A program made the translations under genes and the position numbers. DNA of 64,000 bases from Candidatus Omnitrophota bacterium (GTDB taxonomy: Bacteria > Omnitrophota > Gorgyraeia > Zapsychrales > Zapsychraceae), in NCBI GenBank assembly GCA_015233115.1, contig JADFYJ010000001.1, positions 3,084 through 67,083 on the forward strand, given 5' to 3'. This document shows, one piece after another, positions 29,708 through 63,846 of the stretch (its first letter is position 1; every line of letters starts with the position of its first letter). The notes under the pieces are model-generated. The model was given only the letters and a program-made list of their open reading frames with translations. It did not search any database and was not told the DNA's origin.

Positions 29708-30067
29708 ATGATATCTGAGTATTTAACAACTTCACAAACGGCCAGACTTTTTCATGTCACCCGATTTACTGTTCTTAACTGGATTAAACAGCAAAAATTA
29801 CAGGCTGTTTCAACTTTGGGCGGACACCAAAGAATACCTCAAAAAGCTATTGAAGACCTTCTCAAGCAAAAACAACAGGGATCCAAAATACCTGTTCAAG
29901 CACATATTTCCAAACAAATTCCTGAAGTAAAAAAAACAGTTAAACCTATCAGCACAGGCAGACCAGCACAAGCTAAAGCAGCTGAATTTGCTCGTGTTAT
30001 GAGAAAAGGGTCTTTTATATCCGGGAAATTTATCGCGTCTATAAAAAGCGGATTTTCACTTTTATGA
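29708..30067 (+). CDS. excisionase/MerR-type HTH DNA-binding protein (MamR-like candidate)
   Basis: TTSQTARLFHVTRFTVLNWIKQQKL...GGHQRIP = HTH_17-type helix; paralog of the 56528 ORF (SVTRFSVINWVKKGIL..PGGHRRI). Confidence 0.55.
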   Translation: MISEYLTTSQTARLFHVTRFTVLNWIKQQKLQAVSTLGGHQRIPQKAIEDLLKQKQQGSKIPVQAHISKQIPEVKKTVKPISTGRPAQAKAAEFARVMRKGSFISGKFIASIKSGFSLL

Positions 30068-30074
30068 AGTAAAA

Positions 30075-30150
30075 ATTTTATGGTTTTTAGTTGTTGGTTG
30101 TTGAATGTAATCGCTTTTTCCAAAAACCATGAACCATCAACGATTCAAAT
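30075..30150. repeat. GTTG/CAAC heptad element
   Basis: ggtttttagttgttggttgttgaatgtaatcgctttttccaaaaaccatgaaccatcaacg. Confidence 0.65.
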
Positions 30151-30156
30151 TTATTT

Positions 30157-31470
30157 ATGAAACAATCTGATAAAATTGAAGTTATCGTGGTAGGAGCAGG
30201 GCCATCAGGCTTGGCTTGTGCTTATACTTTAGCCAAAGCGGGTGTGGAGGTTCTTGTTTTAGAGCGAGGTGAATATCCGGGCGCCAAAAATATGTTTGGC
30301 GGGATATTTTTTTCTAGTATCATGGAAAAATTTTTTCCGAATTTTTTAGAAGATGCTCCTTGGGAACGTTTTGTGGGGAAAAGAAAATTTGCTCTTTTGA
30401 CAGGTGACAGTGAGATGACGTTTGAAATGAGCCCGAGTTCGTTTAACCGATCGCCGTTCAACCATTCATTCATTGCGCGCCGCGGGCAGATGGATCAGTG
30501 GTTTGCTAAGAAGGTTGAAGAAGCGGGCGGAAATATTATCCCAAATTATTGCGTGCGGGATTTTTTGTATGAAAAAGGTAAAGTCGTAGGTATTACCAGC
30601 GGCGGAGATGATGACAGTTTTTTGGCGGATTGCATTGTGTGTTCAGAAGGCGCGAATTCGCTTTTAACGGAACGGGCAGGATTACGTGAAAAGATCGGTC
30701 CTGAATATCGTTCGATCGCGGTGAAAGAAAATATCCGTTTCTCGCAGAGTGTTCTGGAAGACCGTTTTGGAGTGACCGGACAGCAAGGGGCGGCATATGA
30801 GTATTTTGGTTCATCAGTTAAAGGGCTTTTAGGCAATGGCTTTATTTACACAAATAAAGACAGTCTTTCAGTCGGCGTAGGATTTTCATTGAGTGATTTT
30901 ATTAAAAGCGGTAATAAAAAAACACCTCATGATATTTTAGAAGAATTCAAGTCTCACCCATCTATAGCGCCTTTAGTGCGCGGCGGTGAAACTGTTGAAT
31001 ACATGGCGCATATGATTCCGTCAGATGGATACAACCGGTTACCTAAATTTTACCGTGACGGATTGCTGATTACCGGTGATGCGGCAGGATTATTGAATAC
31101 TTCGTTTTTTCATGAAGGAGTGAATTTGGCCATGCAGTCGGGTATTTTGGCAGCGGAAACAATTATCGAGGCTCGGGCCAAAAAGAATTATTCGTCAGAA
31201 AATTTATCCAAGTACGAAGAGAAGTTGAATGCGAGTTTTATTTTACAGGATTTAAAAAATTGTAAAAATTTCTTAAGTTTCCTGACCACTCATAAAGCGA
31301 TTATTAATGAATATCCCGCTCTTATGAATGATATTTTGGTCGAATATTTTACTGTTTCTGAAAAGCCAAAGACGACGATCAAAAAAGAAATTTTTAACCG
31401 GATCCGGAAGAATGTGAATATACCCCGGATGGCGAGTGATATGTGGGGAGCATGGAGGAATTTAGTATGA
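30157..31470 (+). CDS. fixC: electron-transfer-flavoprotein:quinone oxidoreductase FixC family (FAD-dependent)
   Basis: VIVVGAGPSGLACAY dinucleotide fold, ERGEYPGAKN, conserved FixC blocks; followed by the ferredoxin-like FixX. Confidence 0.8.
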   Translation: MKQSDKIEVIVVGAGPSGLACAYTLAKAGVEVLVLERGEYPGAKNMFGGIFFSSIMEKFFPNFLEDAPWERFVGKRKFALLTGDSEMTFEMSPSSFNRSPFNHSFIARRGQMDQWFAKKVEEAGGNIIPNYCVRDFLYEKGKVVGITSGGDDDSFLADCIVCSEGANSLLTERAGLREKIGPEYRSIAVKENIRFSQSVLEDRFGVTGQQGAAYEYFGSSVKGLLGNGFIYTNKDSLSVGVGFSLSDFIKSGNKKTPHDILEEFKSHPSIAPLVRGGETVEYMAHMIPSDGYNRLPKFYRDGLLITGDAAGLLNTSFFHEGVNLAMQSGILAAETIIEARAKKNYSSENLSKYEEKLNASFILQDLKNCKNFLSFLTTHKAIINEYPALMNDILVEYFTVSEKPKTTIKKEIFNRIRKNVNIPRMASDMWGAWRNLV

Positions 31471-31784
31471 CACCGGAAACAATCATCCACGCTGCTCCTC
31501 ATGGAAAGAAAAAATTGACATTGGAAGATAAGCTTTATTTGGTTAAAACCAAAAAAGATAACATCAGCCATATTACGATTGAACATAAAAAGTGCACGCG
31601 GTGTCAGAATAAAGTTTGTTTGCGGGTGTGTCCGGCGAATACCTATGAAGAACGCGACGGAAAAATTGAAGCTGCTTATGAAAATTGTTTGGAATGCGGC
31701 AGTTGTAAAGTAGCATGTCCTGAAGGCGCAATTAAATGGGAAAATCCCCGCGGAGGTTTTGGGGTGACATTTTTGAATGGATGA
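31467..31784 (+). CDS. fixX: ferredoxin-like protein FixX
   Basis: CTRCQNKVCLRVCP ... CLECGSCKVACP ... WENPRGGFGV; start set to the ATG at 31467 behind a GGAGG RBS. Confidence 0.75.
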   Translation: MTPETIIHAAPHGKKKLTLEDKLYLVKTKKDNISHITIEHKKCTRCQNKVCLRVCPANTYEERDGKIEAAYENCLECGSCKVACPEGAIKWENPRGGFGVTFLNG

Positions 31785-31787
31785 AAT

Positions 31788-31870
31788 AAGGGTTTTTGGT
31801 TGTTAGTTTTTGGTTGTTGGTTGACTAGACTAATTATTTTTTCCAAAAACCATCAACTATCAACAGTAAA
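31788..31870. repeat. GTTG/CAAC heptad element
   Basis: gggtttttggttgttagtttttggttgttggttgactagactaattattttttccaaaaaccatcaactatcaacag. Confidence 0.65.
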
Positions 31871-31881
31871 AAGGAGAGGTT

Positions 31882-32052
31882 ATGGCACATGTAATTGGCG
31901 GGGCTATCGCAGTGGTTTTAGGTGTGGCAGGAATTATCGGCTGGTGGGATAATTTTGGTGATTTTTTACGCGGTGGTATTCCTTTGGCTCTTTTCCTCGG
32001 TGGTTTAATTGCCGTGAATACGGGAATCAAATTTTTAAAGGAAAAGAAATAA
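31882..32052 (+). CDS. 56-aa two-TM membrane protein, MamI-like candidate (absent from the ORF track because <60 aa)
   Basis: AAGGAGAGG RBS 5 nt upstream; MAHVIGGAIAVVLGVAGIIGWWDNFGDFLRGGIPLALFLGGLIAVNTGIKFLKEKK. The G..GWW..FLRG..P.AL..LGL.A pattern matches my recollection of MamI. Confidence 0.5.
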   Translation: MAHVIGGAIAVVLGVAGIIGWWDNFGDFLRGGIPLALFLGGLIAVNTGIKFLKEKK

Positions 32053-32055
32053 TTT

Positions 32056-32301
32056 ATGCGTAATGCGTATAAAGTGAAGAAAGAAACCTGTTTTAGCCCT
32101 TGGCTAGGATTTATGGTTATTGTGGCGGTGTGTATTATTATTGCCGGCGGGATTTTTATTGAATCCAAAACGCATCCGCGTAAGCATCGAAGGACACATT
32201 TAAAACCAGTGCCGCAAGCAGCTCCAGCACAGCAGGTGGCTTTTCCTAATCCGGCCGACACGGGCGTCGTACCAGATAGGGATAGTAGGATTGTATTTTA
32301 A
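32056..32301 (+). CDS. small single-TM membrane protein with basic tail (81 aa)
   Basis: ATG 4 nt after the mamI-like stop; TM (FMVIVAVCIIIAGGIFI) then an R/K/H-rich segment. Confidence 0.4.
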   Translation: MRNAYKVKKETCFSPWLGFMVIVAVCIIIAGGIFIESKTHPRKHRRTHLKPVPQAAPAQQVAFPNPADTGVVPDRDSRIVF

Positions 32302-32394
32302 TTTTTTTGAGAAGATCGAAGTTAGACAATAGAAGATAGAAAAAGCGGTTGATTAAAGAAATAATTTTTATTTTTTTGGTTTTTAGTTTTTGCA

Positions 32395-32460
32395 TTGTCA
32401 CGTTGTTACGTTGTCACGTTGTTACGTTGTCACGTTGTCACGTTGTCACGTTGTTACTAT
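32395..32460. repeat. tandem 16-bp repeat (ttgtcacgttgttacg)x~4, GTNAC octamer type
   Basis: tgtcacgttgttacgttgtcacgttgttacgttgtcacgttgtcacgttgtcacgttgttac immediately upstream of the protease gene. Confidence 0.8.
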
Positions 32461-32478
32461 AAAAATTTAGGATAATAT

Positions 32479-33870
32479 ATGTCAGAAGACAATAGAGAAG
32501 ATTTTTGTAATCAGCCGATCGGGCCCTGGATCGTTGGCGTAATCGTGATATCGATTATGCTGGTGATTTGGATCGTGATGAAACGGGAAGACATTATTCA
32601 TAGCGTTGAAATGGAACAACCTGTGCTTCCTAAAATCAAAATGTCCACAGCTGGAGAACCATCTTTTCCGACAGCAGTAACGCCAGCGGCCTTTAACAAA
32701 CAGACTCCGGTGGATACAAATTATCGGGTTGCGGCGATTACCAAGGCTACTCCTAATGGCGGTATGCAGTTGGTCGCGAATCAAACAAATGGCAATGGCG
32801 GCGGTTTTCAAAATTCTTTAAAAGACGCGGTGAATTCTATTATTCCTACGGTGTGTGATGTGCATGCCCGACGGGCAGCTACGGCTCCAAATGTCAAGAA
32901 AAATGTGGACGCTCAGAATTTAAAATTTGTTCCGCCTTTTAGCGGCGCTATTGATAAATTTGTTGAAAATAAAGGATTTGAAAATATCGGAGCGGGGATG
33001 TTGGTTGATCAGCGTGGTTATGTATTGACGAATTATCATGTAACGCAGGATGCGACGGATATCGTGGTAACAGTGTTTGGGCCGCCATCTCAGGATTATC
33101 ACGCGGATATTGTTGCCAGTGATCCGGCCAATGATTTGGCTCTCATTAAAATTAAAGCAGCCGGTACGTTTCCGGAAGCCAAGATAGGTGATTCCAGTTT
33201 TACTCAGATAGGCGATTATGTCATAGCTGTAGGCAGTCCTTTTGGCATTGAGCAGACAGTGACGAGCGGCATCATCAGCGGTATTCGTAAATCTATTGTG
33301 ATTGAAGGCGTCCGTTATCAAAATCTTTTTCAGACGGATACGCCAATCAACCGTGGTTCATCAGGCGGTCCATTGGTTAATTTAAGAGGAGAGGTGATTG
33401 GGATTAATTCGGCTATTTATGCCCCTACCGGCGTTTTTAGCGGGACTGGGTTTGCGATACCGATCAATGATTGTAAAGATTTTTTGGCCGTGAATTTGGG
33501 AAGAAATTATTCAATACCGGTTGATCAAAAAGGCATGTTAGCGCCGAACGTGGCGGATTTAAATAAAACCCAAAAAGGTCCTATTCCCATTCATTTTGGT
33601 ATCGAAGTAATGCCGGTCAATGATATCATTGCTAAACAGTTTGGGATTAGCGAGCATGGTGGAGTTTTGGTTAACCGCGTTTTGGATGTATCGCCAGCCA
33701 GTTTTGCGGGAATTCAACGCGGAGACATTGTGGTTTCTGTCGCGGGTGTTCCAGTTAAGGGGATGGATGATATTCCCAAAATTGTCGCGCATTTTAAAAC
33801 CGGTGATAACGTGAATGTCCGGATTCTTCGCAATGGAAAAATCGATGAGGTTCTGGTAAAGTTACAATGA
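32479..33870 (+). CDS. trypsin-like (HtrA/DegP family) serine protease with PDZ domain, MamE-Nter / MamO-like
   Basis: N-terminal TM; catalytic His (TNYHV), Asp (DLALIKI), Ser (GSSGGPLVN); C-terminal PDZ (GDIVVSVAGVPVKGMDD); no CxxCH, so the magnetochrome part would be a separate gene. Confidence 0.7.
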   Translation: MSEDNREDFCNQPIGPWIVGVIVISIMLVIWIVMKREDIIHSVEMEQPVLPKIKMSTAGEPSFPTAVTPAAFNKQTPVDTNYRVAAITKATPNGGMQLVANQTNGNGGGFQNSLKDAVNSIIPTVCDVHARRAATAPNVKKNVDAQNLKFVPPFSGAIDKFVENKGFENIGAGMLVDQRGYVLTNYHVTQDATDIVVTVFGPPSQDYHADIVASDPANDLALIKIKAAGTFPEAKIGDSSFTQIGDYVIAVGSPFGIEQTVTSGIISGIRKSIVIEGVRYQNLFQTDTPINRGSSGGPLVNLRGEVIGINSAIYAPTGVFSGTGFAIPINDCKDFLAVNLGRNYSIPVDQKGMLAPNVADLNKTQKGPIPIHFGIEVMPVNDIIAKQFGISEHGGVLVNRVLDVSPASFAGIQRGDIVVSVAGVPVKGMDDIPKIVAHFKTGDNVNVRILRNGKIDEVLVKLQ

Positions 33871-34463
33871 AAATAAAACCGAAATCAAAATTTACGATTT
33901 TAAATATTCAAAAGCAAATTATGGAATTTGCCAAAGAAAAGCCTTGGCATTTGGCGGGCATTGCGGTGGCCGTGGTTATTGTGGTACAGTTTGTTTGGTC
34001 TTATTTAACCGCTATAGAATTTCTTCCTGAACCTCAGCGTGCCCCGGTGCACAGGGCTATGGTGATTGATAAAGGGGATAGTTTAATTTGGGTTGATATG
34101 GAAGTGACGGCTGTTTCAAGAAGTATAAGAAAATCATTTAAGATTCCTTCTAATATAAAGGGAATGTTCGTGATTGATGAAGGGAAACAATCCGCCCAGC
34201 AATACGGAGTTAAAACTGGCGATGTTATTGTTTCTATCGGGCGCAGGCCGGTACCAACTGCTTCTGCTTTTGTTAAGATTGCCAATAACGTTAAATACTC
34301 GGATGGAATTCTTTTAGACATTTACCGGGATGGAAATCAGTTATATATTACCATTCCTTTTGCGTATCAATATGGCCCCGTTATGGGCCCCAATAAAGGA
34401 AGTTGGCAGCTTGGTTCACCGGCGGTCGGACAAGCCATTCAATATGGTCCAATAGTCAGGTAA
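33867..34463 (+). CDS. membrane-anchored PDZ-domain protein
   Basis: TM then PDZ (GVKTGDVIVSIGRRPVP...); ATGA overlap with the upstream protease gene. Confidence 0.6.
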   Translation: MKIKPKSKFTILNIQKQIMEFAKEKPWHLAGIAVAVVIVVQFVWSYLTAIEFLPEPQRAPVHRAMVIDKGDSLIWVDMEVTAVSRSIRKSFKIPSNIKGMFVIDEGKQSAQQYGVKTGDVIVSIGRRPVPTASAFVKIANNVKYSDGILLDIYRDGNQLYITIPFAYQYGPVMGPNKGSWQLGSPAVGQAIQYGPIVR

Positions 34464-34472
34464 AGGGAAAAT

Positions 34473-36164
34473 ATGGTAACACGTACTCATGTAAAAAAGC
34501 ACAACCCCTCATTAGAAGAAATTTCCGCAAAGATTAAAAATGCGGATTTGAACACCTATTTTATTTTTGGCGCTATCCTCATCGTTTTGATTGCGGGTGT
34601 TTATGCTTTGTTCGCTCCTGAAACGACCAATGAGCCGGTCGGAAATCCTGCCTGCGGAAAAATTGTGGTTGCAACGGATGGGTCAACGCTAGCGTCGAAA
34701 GTTTCGTCCACTTTACCGGAAGCGCGGTATTTTCTGGTTGTCAATCCTTTGACTAAGAGATTGGTTGAATCAATCAAAAATCCTTATCAGGGTAAAGTGC
34801 CGAATCCTCAGATTGCTTATTTAATCGCCGGTAAGGGTGAAGAAGCAGTTATTGTCGGAAGCATTGATCAAGAGAGTTATAATATTTTTAATCAATTTAG
34901 CATTCGGGTGTTTGGCGGGTATCGAGGCCAGGCTAAACAAGTTATTAGTTTGTACCGCAAAGCGAGAATAGGACAGATGGCGCGTCCGACCATGAGCGCT
35001 CCTCAAAATGTTAAGGGACATGCGCAAGTAGCTTTTCAAGGTTTGACAAATTTTGTTTGTCCGCGATGCGGTCAGACGGCTAATGGACAAAATTATAGAG
35101 GCGCAGGTTGTCCGATTTGTCCTAATTGCGCGATCCAGATGATGCAGCAAAATACTTTGCCGCAAAGACCCATGTTGGGACGACAGAATGCCCTGGGTAT
35201 GCGTATTAATCAGCCGTATTGTCCTATTCCCAATGCGCAAAATTCTCAGAATGTTCCTATGCAGAATCAAGTGGGTACTCAGAGTGGAGTACAGGCTGGC
35301 GCAGTTATTCAGGATATATACAGCAAAGGTGTTATGGATGGCTTAAGCATGAAAAATAATTTTGCCGGCGGATTACAGGCCGCGTTTGGTTTTGGCCAGC
35401 AAGCTTTTGTATGTCCGGTTTGTAATTGGCGGATGAAAGCTTCTAAACAAGGGAATAATTTTCCGGCTTGCCCGAATTGCGGTTCGCCTATGGCTTTGGA
35501 TATGTCGAAACAAAATCAAGAACCACAAGGGCCGTTTGCGGAAGGGGTATTTGCCGCTAACACTGTTCCTGCGGTTCAACCCGCTTATCCGATGAATAAT
35601 CAGGCGAATAATCAAATGAATATAAATCAAGGTAATGAATTAACCCAAGCTTTTCAATGTCCGAATTGTAATTGGCGGATGTATGCGAAGCAAGGTGCTA
35701 ATGAATTTCCACAATGTCCCAATTGCGGTCAGATTATGGCACGGGCAGGCAATGCATTCCAAAAACAAAATACTCAAAACGGTGCTTTTGCCAATAACGG
35801 AAATTTTGCGGCACAAATCGCGCTTCCACAAAATAATCAAGCTGCGGCAGGAACGACCACTGTGGCTCCACCGATTTTTCGTAACGCGGTTATGCCTCAT
35901 GAATATCGGGGAGTTTGCGAGAATTGTCATATTATTCGGGCTGATATCGCGATACCGGCGAATGCGCAAATGCCGCATCCATACCGCGGGATTTGTTCCA
36001 ATTGCCATCAGATTTTAGGAACTGGGGCTGGAGTACAAAATAACAATCAAATCGCGGTTCAGCCAAATGATCCGGCTATGATGCAGAATGATCCAACAAC
36101 GCAAAATCAATTTCAAAATAATACGGCCCCGGATCAGGGTGTCGCGCATGTGGGAATAAAATAG
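34473..36164 (+). CDS. NifX/NifB-like domain + repeated zinc ribbons + tandem magnetochrome protein
   Basis: TM; residues ~60-160 resemble the dinitrogenase FeMo-cofactor-binding fold (KIVVATDGSTLASKVS...ARYFLVVNP...IAGKGEEAVIVGSID); three CPxC-x12-16-CPNC ribbons in Q/N-rich linkers; C-terminal MPHEYRGVCENCH and MPHPYRGICSNCH. Confidence 0.7.
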   Translation: MVTRTHVKKHNPSLEEISAKIKNADLNTYFIFGAILIVLIAGVYALFAPETTNEPVGNPACGKIVVATDGSTLASKVSSTLPEARYFLVVNPLTKRLVESIKNPYQGKVPNPQIAYLIAGKGEEAVIVGSIDQESYNIFNQFSIRVFGGYRGQAKQVISLYRKARIGQMARPTMSAPQNVKGHAQVAFQGLTNFVCPRCGQTANGQNYRGAGCPICPNCAIQMMQQNTLPQRPMLGRQNALGMRINQPYCPIPNAQNSQNVPMQNQVGTQSGVQAGAVIQDIYSKGVMDGLSMKNNFAGGLQAAFGFGQQAFVCPVCNWRMKASKQGNNFPACPNCGSPMALDMSKQNQEPQGPFAEGVFAANTVPAVQPAYPMNNQANNQMNINQGNELTQAFQCPNCNWRMYAKQGANEFPQCPNCGQIMARAGNAFQKQNTQNGAFANNGNFAAQIALPQNNQAAAGTTTVAPPIFRNAVMPHEYRGVCENCHIIRADIAIPANAQMPHPYRGICSNCHQILGTGAGVQNNNQIAVQPNDPAMMQNDPTTQNQFQNNTAPDQGVAHVGIK

Positions 36165-36172
36165 GAGAGCAT

Positions 36173-36412
36173 ATGGAACCATTTTCAATGTTCGGTGTTA
36201 TCTTGTTATCCGTGGCAGCTGGTGCGGTGTTGTCGATGGTTTCCAAAAAACCGCAAGCTCCAGTTAATAATAAAATTCAGTCTGCTGCGACGGAAAAGCC
36301 GGTTGTCCAGCAACAGGAATTAGTTTCTGAATATACAGAAGAAAAAGTACCAGGAATCATCGATGCTGAAAAAGAAAAAGCCATTGATGATTTGATTGAG
36401 AAAAGGAGTTAA
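36173..36412 (+). CDS. small membrane protein (79 aa)
   Basis: single TM then an acidic/coiled segment; tightly packed between MGC genes. Confidence 0.4.
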   Translation: MEPFSMFGVILLSVAAGAVLSMVSKKPQAPVNNKIQSAATEKPVVQQQELVSEYTEEKVPGIIDAEKEKAIDDLIEKRS

Positions 36413-36414
36413 TC

Positions 36415-36672
36415 ATGGCAACAACGAAACCTATTATTTGTACATTATGTAATGGTGAAATGCAGCTTTATACCGGGCCCCGCTATAATAAAAAATTCAG
36501 CGGTGGTTTAATTATCGGCGGTATTTTTGCGACTTGCTTTTGGATCGGCGCGGTTTTAGGAATTCCGCTTATCGTGATGGGCCTATATATGACTGGTTCT
36601 AAACGTCATTTGTGGGTGTGCAAAGATTGTAATACAGCAATTGAACGTGTTGAAATTAACACTAAAGGATAA
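36415..36672 (+). CDS. small membrane protein with split zinc ribbon (CTLC...CKDC)
   Basis: CxxC - TM hairpin - CxxC; 85 aa. Confidence 0.45.
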   Translation: MATTKPIICTLCNGEMQLYTGPRYNKKFSGGLIIGGIFATCFWIGAVLGIPLIVMGLYMTGSKRHLWVCKDCNTAIERVEINTKG

Positions 36673-36845
36673 TTTATTTTGGTTTTTGGTTGATAGTTTT
36701 TGGTTGATGGTTATGAAATGATTCTCCAAAAATTAAAAACCTTTTACAACAACATATTTTATTTAATTGGTTATTGGTTTCGGTTATTTAAATATTTCGT
36801 TTTTTCCAAAAACCACTAACCATCAACAATCAACCAGCAAAATTA
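36672..36845. repeat. GTTG/CAAC heptad element (two modules)
   Basis: ttttggtttttggttgatagtttttggttgatggtt...ctccaaaaattaaaaacc and ggttattggtttcggtt...cgttttttccaaaaaccactaaccatcaacaatcaaccagc. Confidence 0.65.
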
Positions 36846-36854
36846 ATATTTATC

Positions 36855-38063: not shown

Positions 38064-38065
38064 TC

Positions 38066-39531: not shown

Positions 39532-39539
39532 AACATAAA

Positions 39540-39660
39540 GCGCGCGGTTGGGCGGTTTGCATTTAAACCGAATCCTTCGCTCAAACAGCAGCTCCTAAGC
39601 GGAGCTGAACTCGCTCGGTGATTCGGTTTCAACGCCAACCTTGTATTTTGGCACGCGGTT
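39540..39660 (+). repeat. R1 structured element, copy 3
   Basis: gcgcgcggttgggcggtttgcatttaaaccgaatccttcgctcaaacagcagctcctaagcggagctgaactcgctcggtgattcggtttcaacgccaacc...ggcacgcggtt. Confidence 0.85.
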
Positions 39661-39667
39661 AGAAATT

Positions 39668-40558: not shown

Positions 40559-40560
40559 AA

Positions 40561-40697: not shown

Positions 40698-40716
40698 AAA
40701 TTTAGAAAATAAAGCT

Positions 40717-56527: not shown

Positions 56528-56932
56528 ATGAAAGAATATTTTTCCACAGTTGAAGCAGCCAAGATCTGCAGTGTCACTAGATTTTCCGTAATCAATTGGG
56601 TCAAAAAAGGCATTCTAAAAAGCACGGCAACTCCCGGCGGCCATCGTCGTATTCACCGGGCTGATCTGCTGGCGTTCATAAAAACTTATAAGATTGGCCT
56701 TAATGTATTTAAATCGGAAGAATTGGTCGGCATGCAAGCGGACTTCATCCGCTGTTGGGAATTTCATCAGGCTGACAAAAAAACCGGAGCGCACAATTGT
56801 AAGTTGTGTGTGGTTTTTTTGTCTGACACGAAAAAATGTTATACCCTCCGGACGCATGTGAGCCATCAAAAAATATTCTGTAAAACCTCATGTTTGGAAT
56901 GTGGTTACTATAAAAAAATTCATATTGATTAA
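56528..56932 (+). CDS. excisionase/MerR-type HTH protein with C-terminal Cys/His-rich region (MamR-like candidate)
   Basis: FSTVEAAKICSVTRFSVINWVKKGIL...PGGHRRI; paralog of the 29708 ORF; C-terminus has CKLC...C..C. Confidence 0.55.
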   Translation: MKEYFSTVEAAKICSVTRFSVINWVKKGILKSTATPGGHRRIHRADLLAFIKTYKIGLNVFKSEELVGMQADFIRCWEFHQADKKTGAHNCKLCVVFLSDTKKCYTLRTHVSHQKIFCKTSCLECGYYKKIHID

Positions 56933-56966
56933 TGTGTGAAATTTTTTTCAATGAAAGGTTAAATAC

Positions 56967-57533
56967 ATGAAAAACGAATCAAAAAAAGTGTCTTGTAAAT
57001 CGGGGTCTTGTTCAGATTCAATTGCTAAAAAAGTATGGCTTGTCGTAGGCGCAGTTGTTGTGTTGGCGGTTTTGTTTTGCGCTGCCATGTTTAAAACAAA
57101 AAACTTTTTGCCTCCTGGTGCCGTAGCATCAACGCGCAGTGCGCAGCAGGCAGCATATGTACCATTTTGCGGGGTACGCGGCGGTCAGCAAGCTGCTTTT
57201 CAACAAAATAACGGGATAATTCATTGCCCTCGATGCAATTTTGATTATAACGATTCAACTGCGGTTAACCGTGGTTTTTCGCGTTGTCCGCGTTGTCAGG
57301 GATATATTTCATGTAGGAATCAGAATGGCGGGGGATTTAGAAATGTTGCCTTAACGCAGCCGGTATCCGCGCCGCCAATTTTTAGGGATGCTCTCATGCC
57401 GCATGAATTTCGCGGAGTTTGTGAAAATTGCCATGTGGTTAATCCGGATATTACGATACCCATTTCATCAACACAAATGCCGCATGAATATCGTGGTGTT
57501 TGTTCTAATTGCCATACCATATTGGGCGGGTAA
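56967..57533 (+). CDS. double-magnetochrome protein with zinc ribbon (MamT/MamX-like)
   Basis: TM; CPRCNFDYND...CPRCQGY ribbon; MPHEFRGVCENCH and MPHEYRGVCSNCH. Confidence 0.65.
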   Translation: MKNESKKVSCKSGSCSDSIAKKVWLVVGAVVVLAVLFCAAMFKTKNFLPPGAVASTRSAQQAAYVPFCGVRGGQQAAFQQNNGIIHCPRCNFDYNDSTAVNRGFSRCPRCQGYISCRNQNGGGFRNVALTQPVSAPPIFRDALMPHEFRGVCENCHVVNPDITIPISSTQMPHEYRGVCSNCHTILGG

Positions 57534-57544
57534 GAAAGGTAACT

Positions 57545-58471
57545 ATGCATTTTGGACAAAAAGCAAAAATGCTTCATGAATTAAAAGGTTTGGAAGATTC
57601 CAAAGAGAATATTTGCGGTCACAAAACGCTTTTGAATCCAAATATAAACAGCAAAAAGAACGAGCATAAAAATAGTTTTTTGGATTTTTTGTCTTCAAAA
57701 GTTAAAGCCTTTAGTGAATTTGAAGATATGGCATCTTTTGCCGCCAGTATTTTGCGGGCCTCTAGTTATCCATTTTTTGTCGTCGATAAAAATATGAAAA
57801 TTCAATATATGAATCCGTCCTGTTTGGATTTTACCGGATTGAAACTGAATGACGTGATTGGAAAAATTAATTGCATGAGTGTTTTCAATAGCAATTTATG
57901 TGAAAAAAATTGCGCTATAAAACAGGCCATGTCGACAAAGAAATCTGTGATTGGCAAAAGAGTGCGGGTACAAGATAAATTAGGAAGAGAACATACAATT
58001 ATTGTTTCAGCTGGACCGCTTATTGACAATAAAGGAAAAGTTTTAGGCGGATTTGAGGTGTGGCGAGATGCCATGGCCGAAGAAGAAGTGTCTTTGCGTA
58101 TTAACCGTTTTCTGGAAATGTTGAAAGAGTATTACCGGAACATGGATGGGTTTCTTGAAAAGATTGAAAAAAGACCATTTTCGAAAGAATTGGAAAGCAA
58201 AGAACATTGGAACAGTTTGATCTGTGATATGAAGAAGCAGACCAAGGACTTACAAAATTATAGCCGTAATTTTTTAAAATCCAGCTGCTGGGACATATTG
58301 AATTGTCCGCCAGAGCGGCAAATTCAATGCCCGTCTTTTCCCAATCGTGGAACTAAATGTTGGGAAGTAAATTATACTTGGTGCGACGGACAGATGCAGG
58401 GTCTCGCATCCGATAAAAAAAATAAATGTAAAAAGTGTATGGTTTTTATCAGGGAAAAGACTTTGCGGTAA
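57545..58471 (+). CDS. PAS-domain protein with C-terminal cysteine/tryptophan-rich putative metal- or redox-sensing domain
   Basis: PAS core (FFVVDKNMKIQYMNPSCLDFTGLKLNDVIGK...); C-terminal CWDILNCP..C...C..W...W.C...CKKC; start set at ATG 57545 (GAAAGG RBS). Confidence 0.55.
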   Translation: MHFGQKAKMLHELKGLEDSKENICGHKTLLNPNINSKKNEHKNSFLDFLSSKVKAFSEFEDMASFAASILRASSYPFFVVDKNMKIQYMNPSCLDFTGLKLNDVIGKINCMSVFNSNLCEKNCAIKQAMSTKKSVIGKRVRVQDKLGREHTIIVSAGPLIDNKGKVLGGFEVWRDAMAEEEVSLRINRFLEMLKEYYRNMDGFLEKIEKRPFSKELESKEHWNSLICDMKKQTKDLQNYSRNFLKSSCWDILNCPPERQIQCPSFPNRGTKCWEVNYTWCDGQMQGLASDKKNKCKKCMVFIREKTLR

Positions 58472-58528: not shown

Positions 58529-59650
58529 ATGTCAGTTGAAAATGCAAAATCATATTATTTAGGAAAAGATGGCTGCAAAAAATCGAATTGCGCGGAAGCT
58601 GTGGCTCATGCCTTTAAAGATAAATTTAACATGACGGACGAGGAAATTGCGTTATTCGCTCGCTGGGGCGGCGGACAGTCGCCAGAGGGGCAGTGCGGCT
58701 CATTATACGCGGCAAAGGTGATGTTGGAAAAAAAGTATCCAGAGCAAATCAAGGTCTGCGAAAGTGTTTTTTTATCAACCGCTGGTTCGCTTAAATGTAA
58801 AGACATCCGTTCCTTAAAGAAGTTGTCATGTTTAGGATGTGTCGAAAAAGCGGGAGAATTTTTAGATCAAATTGATGATTCCGGAGGCCAGATTATAAAA
58901 GATAAAAGTGATTTATCGGGAGGGGATAAGAAAATAATCGATGCGTGTGGATTGCAGTGTCCGGGTCCGATTATGCTCATCAAGCAGGCCATTGACCAAA
59001 TTCAGTTTGGTGAAACGATTGAAATCGCGGCTACAGATCCCGCCTTTCCGGCTGATGTGCGGGCATGGTGTCAGAGCACTGGAAATGAATTGGTCAATTT
59101 AAAATTGGAACACGGTCGTACTATAGCTATTATACGAAAAAAGGAAAAATTAGCCGTTGCGGGAACGCCGGTTAACGGAGTTCTGTCAAAAACAATTGTG
59201 GTTTTTAGCAGTGATTTTGATAAAGTTATTGCTTCTTTTGTTATTGCTACCGGCGCAGCGGCTATGGGAAGTAAAGTGACAATGTTTTTCACGTTTTGGG
59301 GTTTGAATGTTCTGCGCAGGTCAGAATCTGTTCCGGTGAAAAAGAATTTAGTTGAGCAGATGTTTGGCTGGATGATGCCCAGAGGCGCTGACAAGCTTTC
59401 GCTTTCTAAAATGAACATGTCCGGAGCCGGGACATGGATGATTAAGGAAATCATGAAGAAAAAAAATATTTCTTCTTTGCCGGAATTTATGCTGAGCGCC
59501 AAGCAATCAGGAGTAAGGCTGGTAGCTTGTACTATGTCTATGGATCTCATGGGTATCAAACCAGAAGAGCTGATTGAGGGCGTAGAATTCGGCGGTGTAG
59601 CTACTTATCTGGAGCAGGCGGATCAGGGGAATGTGAATTTATTTATTTAA
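58529..59650 (+). CDS. three-domain fusion: C_GCAxxG_C_C-type redox module + TusA-like + DsrE/DsrF-like
   Basis: N-terminus CKKSNCAEAVAHAF...QCGSLYAA...LSCLGC; middle CGLQCPGPIMLIKQAI (CPxP TusA motif); C-terminus DsrE-like with ACTMS cysteine. Confidence 0.6.
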   Translation: MSVENAKSYYLGKDGCKKSNCAEAVAHAFKDKFNMTDEEIALFARWGGGQSPEGQCGSLYAAKVMLEKKYPEQIKVCESVFLSTAGSLKCKDIRSLKKLSCLGCVEKAGEFLDQIDDSGGQIIKDKSDLSGGDKKIIDACGLQCPGPIMLIKQAIDQIQFGETIEIAATDPAFPADVRAWCQSTGNELVNLKLEHGRTIAIIRKKEKLAVAGTPVNGVLSKTIVVFSSDFDKVIASFVIATGAAAMGSKVTMFFTFWGLNVLRRSESVPVKKNLVEQMFGWMMPRGADKLSLSKMNMSGAGTWMIKEIMKKKNISSLPEFMLSAKQSGVRLVACTMSMDLMGIKPEELIEGVEFGGVATYLEQADQGNVNLFI

Positions 59651-59738
59651 AATTAATTTGTACAAAGGGCTGAATCCGTTTTGCTCTTGACGAATACAAA
59701 AGAATATATTATATTCAAAATAGAAATGAGGTGATCAT

Positions 59739-59981
59739 ATGTCCAAGACAATAACCATGAGACTTTCCGATGAGGATTATAAGGTGATTTCCAGCGCGGC
59801 TCATCATGAACGACGGCCGATTTCAAATTTTATTACGCATAGGGTCATGGAGGCAATTGCCAATATGAATACTGTTGATGATGCGGAGATGAAGGAAATT
59901 GTTTCTGATGCCAAGGTAATGAAAAGTATCGGAAGAGGTCAAAAGCTATTTGCGCAAGGGAAGGGCCGGCTCGTTGTTTAA
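59739..59981 (+). CDS. ribbon-helix-helix antitoxin (CopG/DUF1778-like)
   Basis: 80 aa; KTITMRLSDEDYKVISSAAHHERRPISNFI = RHH strand-helix. Confidence 0.55.
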   Translation: MSKTITMRLSDEDYKVISSAAHHERRPISNFITHRVMEAIANMNTVDDAEMKEIVSDAKVMKSIGRGQKLFAQGKGRLVV

Positions 59982-60261
59982 TTTTCAAATTTTTGAAACA
60001 CAAGACTACCTTGACCATCTTGAAGAACTGCTAGGGAAAAAACAAGAAACTTTTAATAAAAAACTTCAGGAATATGTTTACCCGCAGCTTAGGAACCAAC
60101 CATATTTTGGAAAAAATATTAAAAAATTAAAAGCCTGTTCTTATCCGACCTGGCGTTATCGTGTTGGAGATATTCGTCTTTTCTACCAAATTGATTCCCT
60201 TGGAAACATTGTTCTTTTGACCGCCGCCATGCTTCGTAAAGACGCGTACCGCAATATTTGA
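59950..60261 (+). CDS. type II toxin, RelE/ParE family
   Basis: C-terminal YRVGDIRLFYQID..IVLLTAA...KD signature; overlaps the antitoxin; start codon uncertain. Confidence 0.6.
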   Translation: MRKGRAGSLFNFQIFETQDYLDHLEELLGKKQETFNKKLQEYVYPQLRNQPYFGKNIKKLKACSYPTWRYRVGDIRLFYQIDSLGNIVLLTAAMLRKDAYRNI

Positions 60262-60480: not shown

Positions 60481-60822
60481 ATGTTTTCGCCCATTAAGAA
60501 TCAAATGGTCTCTTTTTTGACCGAACAGGCTCGCGCGGGAATCAAAAAACTTGATAAAAATTCTTTAGCTGCGCAGGAATTAAGCGAACTGGATGTGGAT
60601 ACAGTATTAAAAGAAGATATTCAGCAATTCTGCGATGTGATGACCTTTCCTGAGATGGTCAAGATTATGTCTTTAGGCGCGACTATAAAATTAAATGCTG
60701 ATTCAGAAAACGCGAAAGCGGACATTAAAAAGATCGCTAAAACTTTGGTGGAACGGGTAGAAAAGAAACAGGTAAAAATTAAAACTCCGGAATCGTGCCG
60801 CGAGTTGCTTTTTAATCTTTAA
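60481..60822 (+). CDS. hypothetical protein (113 aa)
   Basis: intact ORF, lysine-rich C-terminus, no recognisable family. Confidence 0.4.
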   Translation: MFSPIKNQMVSFLTEQARAGIKKLDKNSLAAQELSELDVDTVLKEDIQQFCDVMTFPEMVKIMSLGATIKLNADSENAKADIKKIAKTLVERVEKKQVKIKTPESCRELLFNL

Positions 60823-60837
60823 AGGGGACGGTATTTT

Positions 60838-60935
60838 TAATATGATGGTTGTTGGTTGTTAGTTTTTGGTTGATGGTCGAAGAAATTAATCGTTTTTTCC
60901 AAAAACCAAAAACCATCATCCATCAACGGGAAATT
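60838..60935. repeat. GTTG/CAAC heptad element
   Basis: gatggttgttggttgttagtttttggttgatggtcgaagaaattaatcgttttttccaaaaaccaaaaaccatcatccatcaacgg. Confidence 0.65.
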
Positions 60936-60970
60936 AAATAACCGTTTTCTGATTTTAAGAAGGGAATATA

Positions 60971-61834
60971 ATGAAATCGTTTTTTATTAAAATATTTATG
61001 GTCATTGCGGCCGCTTTTTGTTTGGCAGAAGGGCTGGTTTTGGTCGCTGTTGGATTGGGCCGTCTTACTCCGGAAAAATTACAGCAGTTATACGCCGCTT
61101 TACTCGCCGCGCCGAAAGCTTTGTCTATTATTTTAGGCGTAGGTTTATTCTTTGTTATTTTGGGTTTCATCCTTTTGATTTTGTCATCAAGAACTAAACC
61201 TGTGCCGCCCACAATTCAGGTCGAAAAAGATGGACGGACATTAAATATTCCTCAATTGGCGGTCAAAGATTTTATTATGCAGATTCTGGAACAAAATCCT
61301 TATACCAGCGATTTTACAGTCGCGTTTGAACGTAAAGGCAAAGGACCTGAGCTGGATATTATGATCACCTTAGCGCTGAATGGTGTATCTTCGATATATG
61401 AAGAATTAAATAAAATTGAAGATGTGGTTAAAACTGAATTGGAACGTGTTTTTGATTTAAAAGATTTCAAATTTGTGTTTCTTTTAAGAGGTGTCGCTGG
61501 AGATCCCAAGAAAAAATATTTTGCGTCTCCTGAATCTGAAGAACAGCCTGCCGCTGAGCAAAATTTATCTGTCCCGGAAATGATCGCTGTCAAAGCCAGT
61601 GATAAAGCCGCGACAAAGGTTGCTAGTGACGATGATCTTTTCAGGAAAATTTCTGATGATGATGCCAGCGAAGCGTCGGATGAATCTGCTGAAGTAATTG
61701 AACCGGCAGAAGAGATTGAAGAGGTTGAAGAAGCCGAGGAAGACGACGAAGTGCCGGTTATGAAACGTAAAGTTATGAAGAAGAATAAATCTAAAGATGC
61801 TTCTTTGCTTTCAAAGATGTTATGGGGAAAATAA
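60971..61834 (+). CDS. membrane protein with Asp23-like middle region and strongly acidic C-terminal tail
   Basis: 2 TM; C-terminal DDASEASDESAEVIEPAEEIEEVEEAEEDDEV; 13-nt overlap with feoB suggests co-translation. Confidence 0.5.
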   Translation: MKSFFIKIFMVIAAAFCLAEGLVLVAVGLGRLTPEKLQQLYAALLAAPKALSIILGVGLFFVILGFILLILSSRTKPVPPTIQVEKDGRTLNIPQLAVKDFIMQILEQNPYTSDFTVAFERKGKGPELDIMITLALNGVSSIYEELNKIEDVVKTELERVFDLKDFKFVFLLRGVAGDPKKKYFASPESEEQPAAEQNLSVPEMIAVKASDKAATKVASDDDLFRKISDDDASEASDESAEVIEPAEEIEEVEEAEEDDEVPVMKRKVMKKNKSKDASLLSKMLWGK

Positions 61835-63846
61835 TGTCCAATTGTCACGCGGGAATTCAGCCCACAAAAAACTCTTCTGAAGCGCAGGAGAAAGTCGTTT
61901 CTCCTCAGAGTATTCCCGACATGAATAATCTTAAAAAAGTCGCTATTATCGGCCTTCCCAATACGGGTAAAACTCAAATCTTTAATAATTTAACCGGCGA
62001 ATACAATATTGTCGCGAATTATCCGGGAACGACCATTGAAATGAAGCGTTCGGTCGCGCGGATTAATGATCAATATTATGAGATCATCGATACTCCGGGA
62101 CTGCATTGCTTGTATATCCATTCGGAAGAAGAGATCGCGGTCCGGGATATGATTTTTTCAGAACGGCCGGACATTATTGTGCAGTGCATTGACGCCAGCC
62201 AGTATAAACAATCCTTTTTATTGACAGCGGAACTTTTGGAATTAGAAACGCCGATGGTGGTCGTCCTTAATTCCATGGACGAAACAGCCCGTAAAGGGAT
62301 ATGGATTGATTCTGTTGAATTGGAAAAGCGGTTGGGTATTCCGGTCGTTGAATGTATAGCTTTGCGCGGATTAGGGAAAGAAGAACTGAAGAAAGCCATT
62401 GCTAAAGCGCGGACTGGTTCTTTAGATGTAAAATACGGCTTTCAAATTGAAAACTGCATTAATGAGTTAACGTCTGTTCTGCCTTTTGATCTGGATTTTA
62501 AATATAAAATTGCTTCGCTCTATTTACTTAATGATCCATTTGTAGAAAAATATTTGGAGAGTAAATTCGGGGCAGAAAAAATTTTATCCGTGCGGGTGGC
62601 GTTTAATAAATTTCGCCGTCAGCTTAAAGGGAATGTCCGGCAGGTGATTACTGACAAACGCAGCCAATGGGTCAATAATTTAACTGAAACTGTAGTCAAA
62701 CAACAGAAGATGATCTATCAGGGGTTTTCCCATCATTTTACTCAAGCGAGCCGCCATCCTGTCTTAGGTATCCCGATATTTTTATTTTTTATGGCCATTG
62801 TTTACTTGGCTGTGGTGTATGTGTCTGGAGCTATTGATAAATTTATTACCTTCGCGGCTGTCACACCGGTGACGGGTTTTATTAATTCATGGCCTTTGCC
62901 GGTATTTTGGAAAGACTTGTTGATCGGGCCGCACGGGATATTAACTCTCGGTGTTTTTAACGCGATCTGCACTGTGCTTCCGATACTTACGGTTTTCTTT
63001 TTTATATTTGGCTGTTTTGAAGACAGCGGCTATATTACCAATTTTACGGTTCTTTCTAAACGGATATTCGCTAAAATCGGTATTCCTGGGAACGCCATTA
63101 CGTCTTTGGTTTTAGGATTTGGATGCAAGACCATGGCGACGTTGAGTACCAGATCTTTGACGATTCCTAAGGAAAAATTTATTGCGGTTTTTTTGATAGC
63201 GTTTGCAATTCCTTGTTCTGCACAATTGAGCATATCAATGGCCATTTTAGCCAGAGTAGGCTTGAGCGCGTTTTTAATTGTTTTGGGCGCATTGGTGGTT
63301 AGTGAAATGGGAGCGGGAATTATTTTGAATAAAATCATTAAGGGGAAAACGGAAAGTTGCTTTATTCAGGTGATACCGCCTATGCGTTTTCCCAGTTTGC
63401 GCGCTGTTTTTATTAAAACTTATTATCGGATTGTTTCATTTTTAAAAGAAGCTCTGCCGATTTTTATTCTGTCTGCCGCTGGACTTTTTATTTTTGATAA
63501 AACTGGTTTATTAGCCATGACCAAGCAGGCTTTGACGCCAATGGTGGTTGGCTGGATGGGGTTACCAAAAGATATTATTGATGTTTTTCTTTTAGCATTG
63601 GCACGACGGGAAGCAGCCGCAGGCCTGATTTTGAAAATGGTGGATTCGCACGCGTTAAATTATATTCAATCGATTGTCGCTGTCGTGGTTACAACTATTT
63701 CTTTTCCCTGTGTCGCAAACGTCATCGCGATTGGCAAAGAAATGGGTTGGAAAACCGCGGTCGCCATGACTGTCATGATTTTTGCGACATCTTTTTTGTT
63801 GATTGGAATGTTGAATGGGCTATTAAAAGTAGTATGTGGCGTCTAG
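61822..63846 (+). CDS. feoB: ferrous iron transport protein B
   Basis: G-domain GLPNTGKTQIFNNLTG, DTPG, NxxD; C-terminal gate/permease TM domains; the true start may be a downstream ATG. Confidence 0.9.
   Translation: MGKIMSNCHAGIQPTKNSSEAQEKVVSPQSIPDMNNLKKVAIIGLPNTGKTQIFNNLTGEYNIVANYPGTTIEMKRSVARINDQYYEIIDTPGLHCLYIHSEEEIAVRDMIFSERPDIIVQCIDASQYKQSFLLTAELLELETPMVVVLNSMDETARKGIWIDSVELEKRLGIPVVECIALRGLGKEELKKAIAKARTGSLDVKYGFQIENCINELTSVLPFDLDFKYKIASLYLLNDPFVEKYLESKFGAEKILSVRVAFNKFRRQLKGNVRQVITDKRSQWVNNLTETVVKQQKMIYQGFSHHFTQASRHPVLGIPIFLFFMAIVYLAVVYVSGAIDKFITFAAVTPVTGFINSWPLPVFWKDLLIGPHGILTLGVFNAICTVLPILTVFFFIFGCFEDSGYITNFTVLSKRIFAKIGIPGNAITSLVLGFGCKTMATLSTRSLTIPKEKFIAVFLIAFAIPCSAQLSISMAILARVGLSAFLIVLGALVVSEMGAGIILNKIIKGKTESCFIQVIPPMRFPSLRAVFIKTYYRIVSFLKEALPIFILSAAGLFIFDKTGLLAMTKQALTPMVVGWMGLPKDIIDVFLLALARREAAAGLILKMVDSHALNYIQSIVAVVVTTISFPCVANVIAIGKEMGWKTAVAMTVMIFATSFLLIGMLNGLLKVVCGV

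Follow-up and report, generated by a model that had tools for sequence, protein, structure and literature searches.

Magnetosome gene clusters of the Omnitrophota have been described before. Lin et al. found in 2018 that Omnitrophica clusters are highly similar to one another in gene content and order, and unlike those of other phyla (PMC5955933), and the 168 genomes that Lin et al. recovered in 2020 from magnetically enriched cells included 20 Omnitrophota (PMC7602337). Nine genes (mamA, B, M, K, P, Q, E, O, and I) are said to be present in all magnetosome gene clusters (PMC7449369), and the HEAT-repeat protein Mad23, ATPase-type Mad proteins, and the actin-like Mad28 make up a chain-assembly set of deep-branching lineages (PMC9840458). 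Here we analyzed 64,000 nt from a Candidatus Omnitrophota metagenome-assembled genome (MAG; assembly GCA_015233115.1, contig JADFYJ010000001.1, positions 3,084 to 67,083), hereafter called the window, concentrating on the interval ~29.7–63.8 kb. An earlier note on this DNA had proposed a magnetosome island from ~29.7 kb to the end of the window. Its Mam set was confirmed, but about 15 of the 34 kb bear no resemblance to mam genes. This portion is accounted for by a FixC/FixX pair (30157-31784), a TusA-DsrE gene (58529-59650), a toxin-antitoxin pair (59739-60261), and a ten-gene heme operon (38030-47911) that the note had overlooked. We consider it likely that the region represents the opening half of a magnetosome gene cluster of the Omnitrophota type, with a nested, most simply ancestral, heme operon of the siroheme route.

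A putative siroheme-route heme operon between mamP and mamM

Ten genes occupy the space between the stop codon of mamP (38063) and a 91-aa gene (47914) upstream of mamM, in the order sirC, hemA, hemC, cobA-hemD, ahbC, hemB, ahbD, ahbA, ahbB, and hemL (Table 1). Judged by family membership, the block would cover the path from glutamyl-tRNA to heme b by way of siroheme, a recognizable sirohydrochlorin ferrochelatase excepted. The SirC-like protein matched the N-terminal module of CysG (residues 3-145, E=4e-19), which is bifunctional in CysG, and the CobA part of the CobA-HemD fusion scored above its NCBIfam cut-off. The scores of the four Ahb proteins were compared with their curated cut-offs, below which all of them lie.

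Both junctions of the block, mamP/sirC and hemL/91-aa gene, measure 2 nt, and a Shine-Dalgarno-like AGGAGA lies inside the 3′ end of hemL. A sequence scan found no convincing terminator at either junction. The G+C content of the block equals that of its surroundings, with no compositional anomaly, and the annotation of open reading frames (ORFs) and families, in which flanking repeats were not searched for, contained no mobile-element gene adjoining it.

The cluster in related Omnitrophota

MamB (MBF0477904.1), HemL (MBF0477901.1), and FeoB of the window are each 100% identical to proteins encoded on a single 269,155-bp contig of a Candidatus Omnitrophota MAG. When one genome per species was scanned, 15 loci came up, all but one of them titled Candidatus Omnitrophota, and many scan loci bear bin names of Lin et al. 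2020 (e.g., nDJH15bin6, nHGRbin18, and nXXbin4). Given the shared MBF accession series, the window's own MAG most probably belongs to that set. The earlier suggestion of a possibly undescribed magnetotactic lineage finds no support, as proteins of the window match an Omnitrophota MAG at 100%, close relatives are bins named in Lin et al. 2020, and the gene order was described in 2018 (PMC5955933).

Fifteen genome loci and some 20 metagenome contigs have the same gene order, the window being collinear with L001-L011, L014-L034, and L096-L106 (our designations for related loci). This order runs from mamI through an 81-aa gene, a mamE-type protease, a PDZ protein, a NifX-like magnetochrome protein, and small genes to mamP, continues with the 91-aa gene, mamM, mamB, mamA, mamQ, PDZ-mamN, TauE, a 60-aa gene, and a PDZ protein, and closes with two genes of no known family and feoB. 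A left flank encoding a CHASE2/SpoIIE phosphatase, RsbW, a STAS protein, an ion channel, and usually ApbE is syntenic in L017, L019, and L025, a conservation that speaks for vertical descent at a single chromosomal site.

Only 154 nt of the window follow feoB. Downstream of feoB, the relatives L005, L009, and L103/L104 encode FecR-like, DtxR-FeoA, and several HEAT-repeat proteins along with small ORFs, followed further on by a ParA/MinD-like ATPase and an actin-like protein (PF25216); in L103 the actin-like gene lies ~9 kb past feoB. Eight of the nine genes listed above as common to all clusters are present in the window, and the ninth, mamK, is probably missing because the window stops at feoB. 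As the earlier note had it, family annotation found no actin-like, MFS, or MamJ-like gene within the window. Judging from the relatives, the window would thus hold the first, biomineralization half of the cluster, with the chain-assembly half just beyond it.

Distribution and history of the heme block

The 91-aa gene is present in essentially every related locus, preceded by hemL in some and by mamP in others. Two scans made without selection for heme genes, one with a TauE query against genomes and one with a MamM profile against metagenomes, gave 24 distinct clusters once near-identical contigs were merged; in 21 of them mamP directly precedes the 91-aa gene. These heme-less junctions vary by clade, being a 4-nt overlap, 14 nt, or 94 nt. 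A search for HemL homologs returned 23 clusters that stand clearly apart at 57-100% identity, beyond which identities level off near 50%. With the window's copy excluded, eight of the nine close homologs whose context was read occupy the same place within a magnetosome cluster (L005, L007, L096, L097, L099/L100, L101, L102, and L106), and a further short contig (L105) carries hemL followed by the 91-aa gene. Two more MAGs probably bear the block, since the spacing of three between their HemL and MamB accessions (MBF0479891/894 and MBF0494523/526) equals that found for the window, and another HemL homolog, MBF0486452.1, was not placeable relative to a cluster from accession numbering. Altogether, the nested block was found at 11 distinct loci with DNA, window included (13 with the two MAGs placed by accession), compared with 21 loci without it.

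We then compared the histories of the two gene sets. In a neighbor-joining tree of MamM plus MamB (26 loci, 200 bootstraps, midpoint root), heme-bearing loci form the deepest branches, namely L101 with L102 (bootstrap 100) and L099. In the crown they are sisters of heme-less clades, L097 grouping with L008 (100) and the window with L002/L025 (93), while L005 and L007 stand next to a large heme-less clade (100); bootstraps of these deep and sister placements range over 87-100. A tree of HemB, AhbD, and HemL agrees with the MamM tree at supported nodes, and the divergence of the heme proteins parallels that of the Mam proteins, HemL being 58-74% identical among the loci with DNA. From this agreement and the deep position of heme-bearing loci, nesting appears most simply ancestral and repeatedly lost. 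The simplest reading of the sequences is that the block was ancestral to the cluster family and underwent at least five independent deletions or relocations. That the block belongs to the cluster and is old we hold with high confidence. Recent horizontal acquisition was considered and rejected on composition and tree congruence.

Other heme genes and arrangements were seen among the relatives. L013 (nDJH2_bin13) carries a lone, divergent hemA at 1037-2089, between the TauE gene and a PDZ gene, whose 350-aa product has the TCNR motif and is 34% identical to the window's HemA; it is a second, independent link between a heme gene and a magnetosome cluster. Four of the heme-in-cluster loci have a gene for a PF01578 cytochrome c assembly membrane protein, CcsA/HemX-like, between sirC and hemA. 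Neither the window, whose sirC and hemA overlap, nor L098, a locus taken up below, has this gene. Fusions inside the heme blocks of relatives join AhbB to HemL (583-592 aa) and AhbD to AhbA (480 aa).

What the embedding may mean

In Magnetospirillum, membrane formation and protein sorting involve MamI, Q, A, and E, iron delivery involves MamM and MamB along with FeoB, and magnetochrome proteins oxidize Fe(II) in the magnetosome lumen to yield a mixed-valence mineral. Read along these lines, the window encodes, in one co-directional array after a consensus promoter (29641-29668), a membrane and sorting set (MamI, MamQ, MamA, the MamE-type protease, and several PDZ proteins), an iron and ion transport set (the MamM/MamB pair of cation diffusion facilitators (CDF), PDZ-MamN, the MamO C-terminal-type TauE protein, and FeoB), and a redox set made up of three proteins that cross the membrane once and each carry two magnetochrome c-heme domains. 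The heme genes would be read through from the mam promoter or promoters, i.e., co-transcribed with the mam genes, and heme b synthesis would rise with the demand of the six magnetochrome c-heme sites; FixCX and ApbE may feed or drain electrons. Whether heme operon and magnetochrome demand are functionally coupled in this way strikes us as nearly an even question, and we advance the coupling only tentatively. The fuller proposal is that the operon is an ancestral, co-transcribed functional module, by which the cluster carries its own cofactor pathway for magnetochrome loading and which may even be the sole heme pathway; we regard this as possible but rather doubtful. If it were true, the many heme-less relatives must get heme another way.

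Several observations weigh against these readings. In the scans without heme selection, hemL directly precedes the 91-aa gene in only three of the 24 distinct clusters (L005, L007, and L026), so the embedding is dispensable. Neither a sirohydrochlorin ferrochelatase nor a cytochrome c maturation gene was seen in the window, and the survey of heme genes covered these 64 kb. The case for co-transcription consists of spacing and weak consensus scans. The same ten-gene heme order stands outside any mam gene in L098, next to feoB-fur-feoA; since this locus starts just after a feoB we considered it as a cluster tail, and rejected this because the 120 best relatives of the cluster FeoB do not include the FeoB of L098. 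As to history, the tree is a neighbor-joining tree of two proteins with midpoint rooting, and recombination between cluster variants could mimic multiple losses. Finally, no phenotype is attributable to this particular genome, and all NCBIfam Mam scores fall below the equivalog cut-offs, as is expected of distant lineages; the models are assumed to be trained mainly on Pseudomonadota sequences.

Much of this would also suit an ordinary housekeeping pathway that sits in a long co-directional array as a neutral passenger with no magnetosome link, which we find quite possible though short of probable. Such a passenger could be absent from 21 of 24 clusters, keep its gene order outside mam genes as in L098, and match its surroundings in G+C content, and any cytochrome needs heme b. 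However, its exact position and tight junctions within the cluster are kept among lineages that share only 52-57% identity in their Mam proteins, close HemL homologs lie in clusters in eight of nine readable contexts, hemA was separately inserted in L013, and the block comes immediately after two magnetochrome genes. If the block had instead been inserted several times or spread horizontally, its patchy distribution on the MamM and MamB tree would be readily explained, and the window does have other lineage-specific inserts (FixCX, TusA-DsrE, and toxin-antitoxin). That would nevertheless take at least five insertions at one inter-gene site with one gene order, and the congruence of the heme and MamM trees at supported nodes, the parallel divergences, and the absence of a compositional anomaly or, in an annotation that did not extend to flanking repeats, of a mobile-element gene beside the block make repeated insertion improbable.

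More drastic alternatives would remove the association itself. The cluster might be a non-functional relic or serve something other than magnetosome formation, given a genome without a phenotype, no mamK in the window, and Mam scores below curated cut-offs. Yet every gene is intact and the packing is tight, the protease has kept its triad and all six CxxCH motifs persist, related MAGs come from magnetically enriched cells (PMC7602337), and actin-like and HEAT-repeat genes follow feoB in relatives, and we therefore judge this very improbable. The window does derive from a MAG, in which an assembly or binning chimera could have brought mam and heme genes together; both junctions recur in 10 other distinct loci, obtained with different assemblers from different samples (NCBI MAGs, JGI, and Logan), which excludes this for practical purposes.

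Should the coupling hold, an organelle gene cluster would carry the full biosynthesis of the cofactor that its redox proteins need, which offers a concrete hypothesis for how heme supply is matched to magnetochrome production. The 11-13 clusters with the block and 21 without form a natural presence/absence series for testing whether coupling matters, and deep-branching clusters moved to foreign hosts may need a matching supply of heme and of cytochrome c maturation.

Magnetosome proteins of the window

Mam proteins were identified with NCBIfam models, Pfam, and profile or sequence matches to the PDB. A Mam model was the best NCBIfam match for MamI, P, M, B, A, Q, and N, the protease being the exception, and nearly all proteins of the set have one N-terminal transmembrane (TM) segment. 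The proteins that the earlier note had recognized were borne out by these searches (Table 1): the MamA-like TPR protein, the MamQ-like LemA paralog, the MamI-like 56-aa ORF, the PDZ-ArsB/NhaD permease of MamN type, several further PDZ proteins, feoB, and the CDF pair, which by score is nearer to the MamM and MamB models than to FieF, with both members below the 350-bit equivalog cut-off. The MamB-like protein is 37% identical to an annotated Nitrospirota MamB, the MamI-like protein 71-75% identical to those of L017, L019, L025, and L031, and FeoB 54-87% identical to the same-position FeoB of related clusters, where the 113-aa and 287-aa pair is always directly upstream. The top natural PDB matches of the MamA-like protein were MamA structures (5LFM and 4XI0, E about 2e-19). 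The MamN-like permease has an additional PDZ domain at its N terminus. The 85-aa protein encoded downstream of the first magnetochrome gene has a CxxC...CxxC pattern and a TM segment and is 51-72% identical among relatives.

The protease at 32479-33870 lacks heme sites, as noted before: a motif scan found no CxxCH. Its HtrA triad is intact, with the motifs NYHV, DLALIK, and GSSGGP (H188, D219, and S295) in register with solved DegP, and the generic DegP/HtrA subfamily TIGR02037 (293 bits) outranks MamE (258 bits). MamE in the Magnetospirillum sense combines a trypsin-like domain, two magnetochromes, and two PDZ domains in one polypeptide, an arrangement that this protein does not have; here the PDZ and magnetochrome functions are carried by the next two genes. 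The predicted products of the three genes are best taken to work like a split MamE, and the protease not to be a full-length MamE member. Similarly, MamO in the Magnetospirillum sense fuses a degenerate protease to TauE, and the protein at 54248-55267 is TauE only, aligning to positions 373-648 of the MamO profile (C-terminal half only). The stand-alone, MamO C-terminal-like TauE/SafE permease of the earlier note was thus upheld, as was its assignment to the deep-branching cluster type, in which protease, magnetochrome, and TauE lie on separate genes.

Magnetochrome proteins and variable modules

All three proteins for which tandem magnetochromes had been claimed matched the Pfam MCR profile (PF18509) at 59.7, 54.2, and 50.1 bits, well above its cut-off of 30.4 bits. 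A motif scan of the region found exactly six CxxCH motifs, two in each of these proteins and all in the context P-H-x-x-R-G-x-C-x-x-C-H. The features that could have told against a magnetosome island, namely the magnetochrome profile matches, the CDF scores, and the presence of further mam homologs, all came out in its favor. The MamP-like protein matched solved MamP (4JJ0, E=8.6e-40) over residues 225-400, spanning the PDZ domain and both magnetochromes. For the MTH1175/NifX-like domain of the first magnetochrome protein, a profile of 13 homologs matched PDB 1EO1 (E=1.1e-9); the domains of this protein are presumably lumenal, since all follow the single N-terminal TM segment. Literature searches, including those combining magnetosome gene with iron-molybdenum cofactor, found nothing on a NifX-like domain in a magnetochrome protein. 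NifX-like domains recur in L003, both stand-alone and as a fusion to a CDF transporter.

The third magnetochrome gene belongs to a variable module (56528-58471) that was found only in the window, L001, L003, and L011, its HTH gene also in L012. In L003 the variable region is expanded (12452-19445) with a NifX-like protein, Zn-ribbon proteins, and a polyferredoxin-like membrane protein, and it gains an extra PDZ protein, two or three further CDF transporters, and the CDF-NifX fusion; it may be a second partial transporter/redox set. Between the PAS gene of the module and the pair upstream of feoB lies an insert (58529-60261, TusA-DsrE2 plus toxin-antitoxin) with no homolog in related loci. The mineral type of Omnitrophota magnetosomes is debated (PMC7449369), and the sulfur-trafficking gene may therefore deserve attention.

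Left border, composition, and other features

The noteworthy ORFs from 28.6 kb to the end of the window are all on the + strand and tightly packed, and G+C content stays at 0.37-0.44 without a step at any boundary. It is about 40% overall, and the earlier description as AT-rich is right only to that degree. The promoter-like site is the sole 12/12 match to the sigma-70 consensus within 29000-48900, a consensus match by which function is not proven. HTH genes occupy the same position at the cluster start in L017, L019, L025, and L031. L017 and L019 likewise have ApbE immediately before the cluster; it stands at the 5′ edge of L031, and L025 lacks it. The FixC/FixX pair, placed between the HTH regulator and mamI, had no homolog in any related locus and is specific to the window; together with ApbE nearby upstream (28593-29603), it hints at a possible flavin-based electron route.

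Across the 64 kb, almost all genes are on the + strand and GC skew is positive throughout; a tRNA scan and an Rfam scan of the same length gave no tRNA gene and no family above threshold. A second LemA protein (186 aa) and, after it, a zinc-ribbon M48-type peptidase are encoded at 1529-3769, 27 kb upstream of the cluster and unrelated to it, among the housekeeping genes recG, plsX, fabH, fabD, serS, and a sulfate ABC transporter.

Table 1. Features of the window, and heme-block genes of relatives, with supporting profile scores. Positions refer to the window unless a related locus is named.
Feature	Position	Strand	Evidence or remark
ApbE (FAD:protein FMN transferase), left-border gene	28593-29603	+	Pfam ApbE 252 bits
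Promoter-like site, TTGACA-16 nt-TATAAT with TG	29641-29668	+	40 nt upstream of first cluster gene
Putative regulator, HTH_17/BldC-excisionase-type DNA-binding protein	29708-30067	+	Pfam HTH_17 37.8 bits; NCBIfam BldC-family 41 bits
FixC-like FAD oxidoreductase	30157-31470	+	NCBIfam FixC-type 322/302 bits
FixX-like 4Fe-4S ferredoxin	31443-31784	+	NCBIfam FixX 47 bits
MamI-like, 56 aa, two TM segments	31882-32052	+	NCBIfam MamI E=1.7e-13, 50 bits (cut-off 80)
Small TM protein, 81 aa, conserved	32056-32301	+	no family match; syntenic homologs in L017, L019, L025, L031
MamE N-terminal-type HtrA protease, one PDZ, intact triad	32479-33870	+	Trypsin_2 109 bits, PDZ_2; NCBIfam MamE 258
Membrane-anchored PDZ protein, 198 aa	33867-34463	+	PDZ_2 26.6 bits (just below 27-bit cut-off); position conserved in all related loci
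Magnetochrome protein: TM, MTH1175/NifX-like domain, three CPxC Zn-ribbon pairs, two MCR domains	34473-36164	+	MCR 59.7 bits
Two small conserved proteins, 79 aa and 85 aa	36173-36672	+	syntenic in nearly all related loci
MamP-like: TM, extra PDZ, PDZ, two MCR domains	36855-38063	+	NCBIfam MamP 223 bits; MCR 54.2 bits
sirC-like precorrin-2 dehydrogenase	38030-38542	+	NAD_binding_7 86.6 bits; probable true start 38066, 2 nt past mamP stop
hemA, glutamyl-tRNA reductase	38539-39531	+	GlutR_N 171.6 bits; TCNR active-site motif in translation
hemC, porphobilinogen deaminase	39641-40558	+	Porphobil_deam 216.6 bits
cobA-hemD fusion, uroporphyrinogen-III methyltransferase + synthase	40717-42222	+	TP_methylase 178, HEM4 150, TIGR01469 287 bits
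ahbC-like radical SAM/SPASM enzyme, NirJ1 type	42222-43328	+	NCBIfam NirJ1 323, NirJ 321, AhbC 298 bits (AhbC cut-off 650), all below cut-offs
hemB, porphobilinogen synthase	43581-44549	+	ALAD 455.8 bits
ahbD-like radical SAM heme b synthase, NirJ2 type	44519-45544	+	NCBIfam AhbD 323 (cut-off 500), NirJ2 317 bits, below cut-offs
ahbA, siroheme decarboxylase subunit	45674-46147	+	NCBIfam AhbA 137.2 bits (cut-off 140); Pfam NirdL-like_HTH + AsnC_trans_reg2
ahbB, siroheme decarboxylase subunit	46128-46622	+	NCBIfam AhbB 103.7 bits (cut-off 125); Pfam NirdL-like_HTH + AsnC_trans_reg2
hemL, glutamate-1-semialdehyde aminomutase, last gene of block	46619-47911	+	Aminotran_3 226.5 bits
91-aa two-TM protein, conserved, always before mamM	47914-48189	+	weak LapA_dom match
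MamM-like CDF transporter	48173-49069	+	NCBIfam MamM 243 > MamB 186 > FieF 109 bits
MamB-like CDF transporter	49323-50237	+	NCBIfam MamB 238 > MamM 216 > FieF 110 bits
MamA-like TPR protein, acidic N-terminal extension	50492-51373	+	NCBIfam MamA 142 bits, next TPR family 62
MamQ-like LemA protein	51534-52325	+	Pfam LemA 105.8 bits; MamQ sole NCBIfam match, 106 bits
PDZ-MamN-like permease, CitMHS/ArsB fold	52424-54238	+	NCBIfam MamN 264, next ArsB 38; CitMHS 189 bits + PDZ_2
MamO C-terminal-type TauE permease, stand-alone	54248-55267	+	Pfam TauE 151.8 bits; MamO model 31 bits
PLDc_N membrane protein, 60 aa	55289-55471	+	Pfam; conserved order after TauE in relatives
PDZ protein, 213 aa	55704-56345	+	Pfam; conserved order after TauE in relatives
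HTH_17 protein, Cys-rich tail	56528-56932	+	family match
Third magnetochrome protein, with Zn ribbon	56967-57533	+	MCR 50.1 bits
PAS + two-CW protein	57509-58471	+	two-CW Cys/Trp-rich C-terminal domain NF045718, 34.1 bits (cut-off 35)
C_GCAxxG-TusA-DsrE2 fusion	58529-59650	+	Pfam DrsE_2 213 bits, TusA 68.6 bits
RHH antitoxin/ParE-like toxin pair	59739-60261	+	ParE_toxin 23.5 bits
Two family-less cluster proteins, 113 aa; 287 aa with TM segments and acidic tail	60481-61834	+	without Pfam match
Cluster-associated FeoB	61822-63846	+	FeoB_N 163.7 bits
PF01578 CcsA/HemX-like gene of relatives	L096 1845-2558; L099 1584-2369; L101 1802-2587; L102 1878-2582
Heme-block fusion genes of relatives	L099 10001-11779; L026 3205-4956; L102 8081-9523

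Comparison with known systems

The heme operon resembles the siroheme-dependent (alternative, Ahb) heme b pathway of sulfate reducers and methanogens, reportedly set out by Bali et al. in 2011, in its putative AhbA/AhbB pair and its NirJ1-type AhbC-like and NirJ2-type AhbD-like proteins, with HemA, L, B, C, D, CobA, and SirC for the steps before them. It differs in that the window encodes a single 10-gene operon inside an organelle gene cluster, with no separate sirohydrochlorin ferrochelatase found. In the Bacillus-type hemAXCDBL operon the HemX gene stands beside hemA, as does the gene for the PF01578 CcsA/HemX-like protein in four heme-in-cluster relatives; the window lacks this gene, and the pathway after uroporphyrinogen differs.

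With the Magnetospirillum mamAB operon the window has a common core of MamI, E, P, M, B, A, Q, N, and the C-terminal half of MamO, along with the magnetochrome domain. In contrast, its MamE and MamO are not fused multi-domain proteins, scores stay below equivalog cut-offs, and there is no MamH, J, L, R, S, T-proper, X, Y, or Z and no mms gene. The mamAB-like clusters with mad or man genes of Desulfobacterota and Nitrospirota likewise have separate protease, magnetochrome, and TauE genes, and the HEAT-repeat (Mad23-like), ATPase, and second actin-like genes in relatives of the window add to the likeness, Mad proteins being compared by description (PMC9840458). Identity is nevertheless low (36-38% between the window's MamB and those of Nitrospirota), no man genes were recognized, and the NifX-like/Zn-ribbon magnetochrome protein and the PDZ-MamN fusion of the window differ.

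The word "heme" is absent from the main texts of Lin 2018 (PMC5955933), Lin 2020 (PMC7602337), and Uzun et al. 2020, and the embedded heme operon is not mentioned in a 2022 review (PMC9840458). Full texts were also searched for magnetosome terms together with heme biosynthesis or siroheme; these searches, which did not reach subscription-only papers (e.g., Kolinko et al. 2016), returned nothing relevant. The cluster type is already published, and the embedded heme operon is the one feature that has apparently gone undiscussed. Compared with the published Omnitrophota clusters (PMC5955933, PMC7602337), the window has the same backbone from mamI to feoB, at protein identities of 55-89%, and the same chromosomal flank. 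It is set apart by its FixCX, TusA-DsrE, and toxin-antitoxin inserts, which are its own, and by the heme operon between mamP and mamM, which it shares with a minority of the family.

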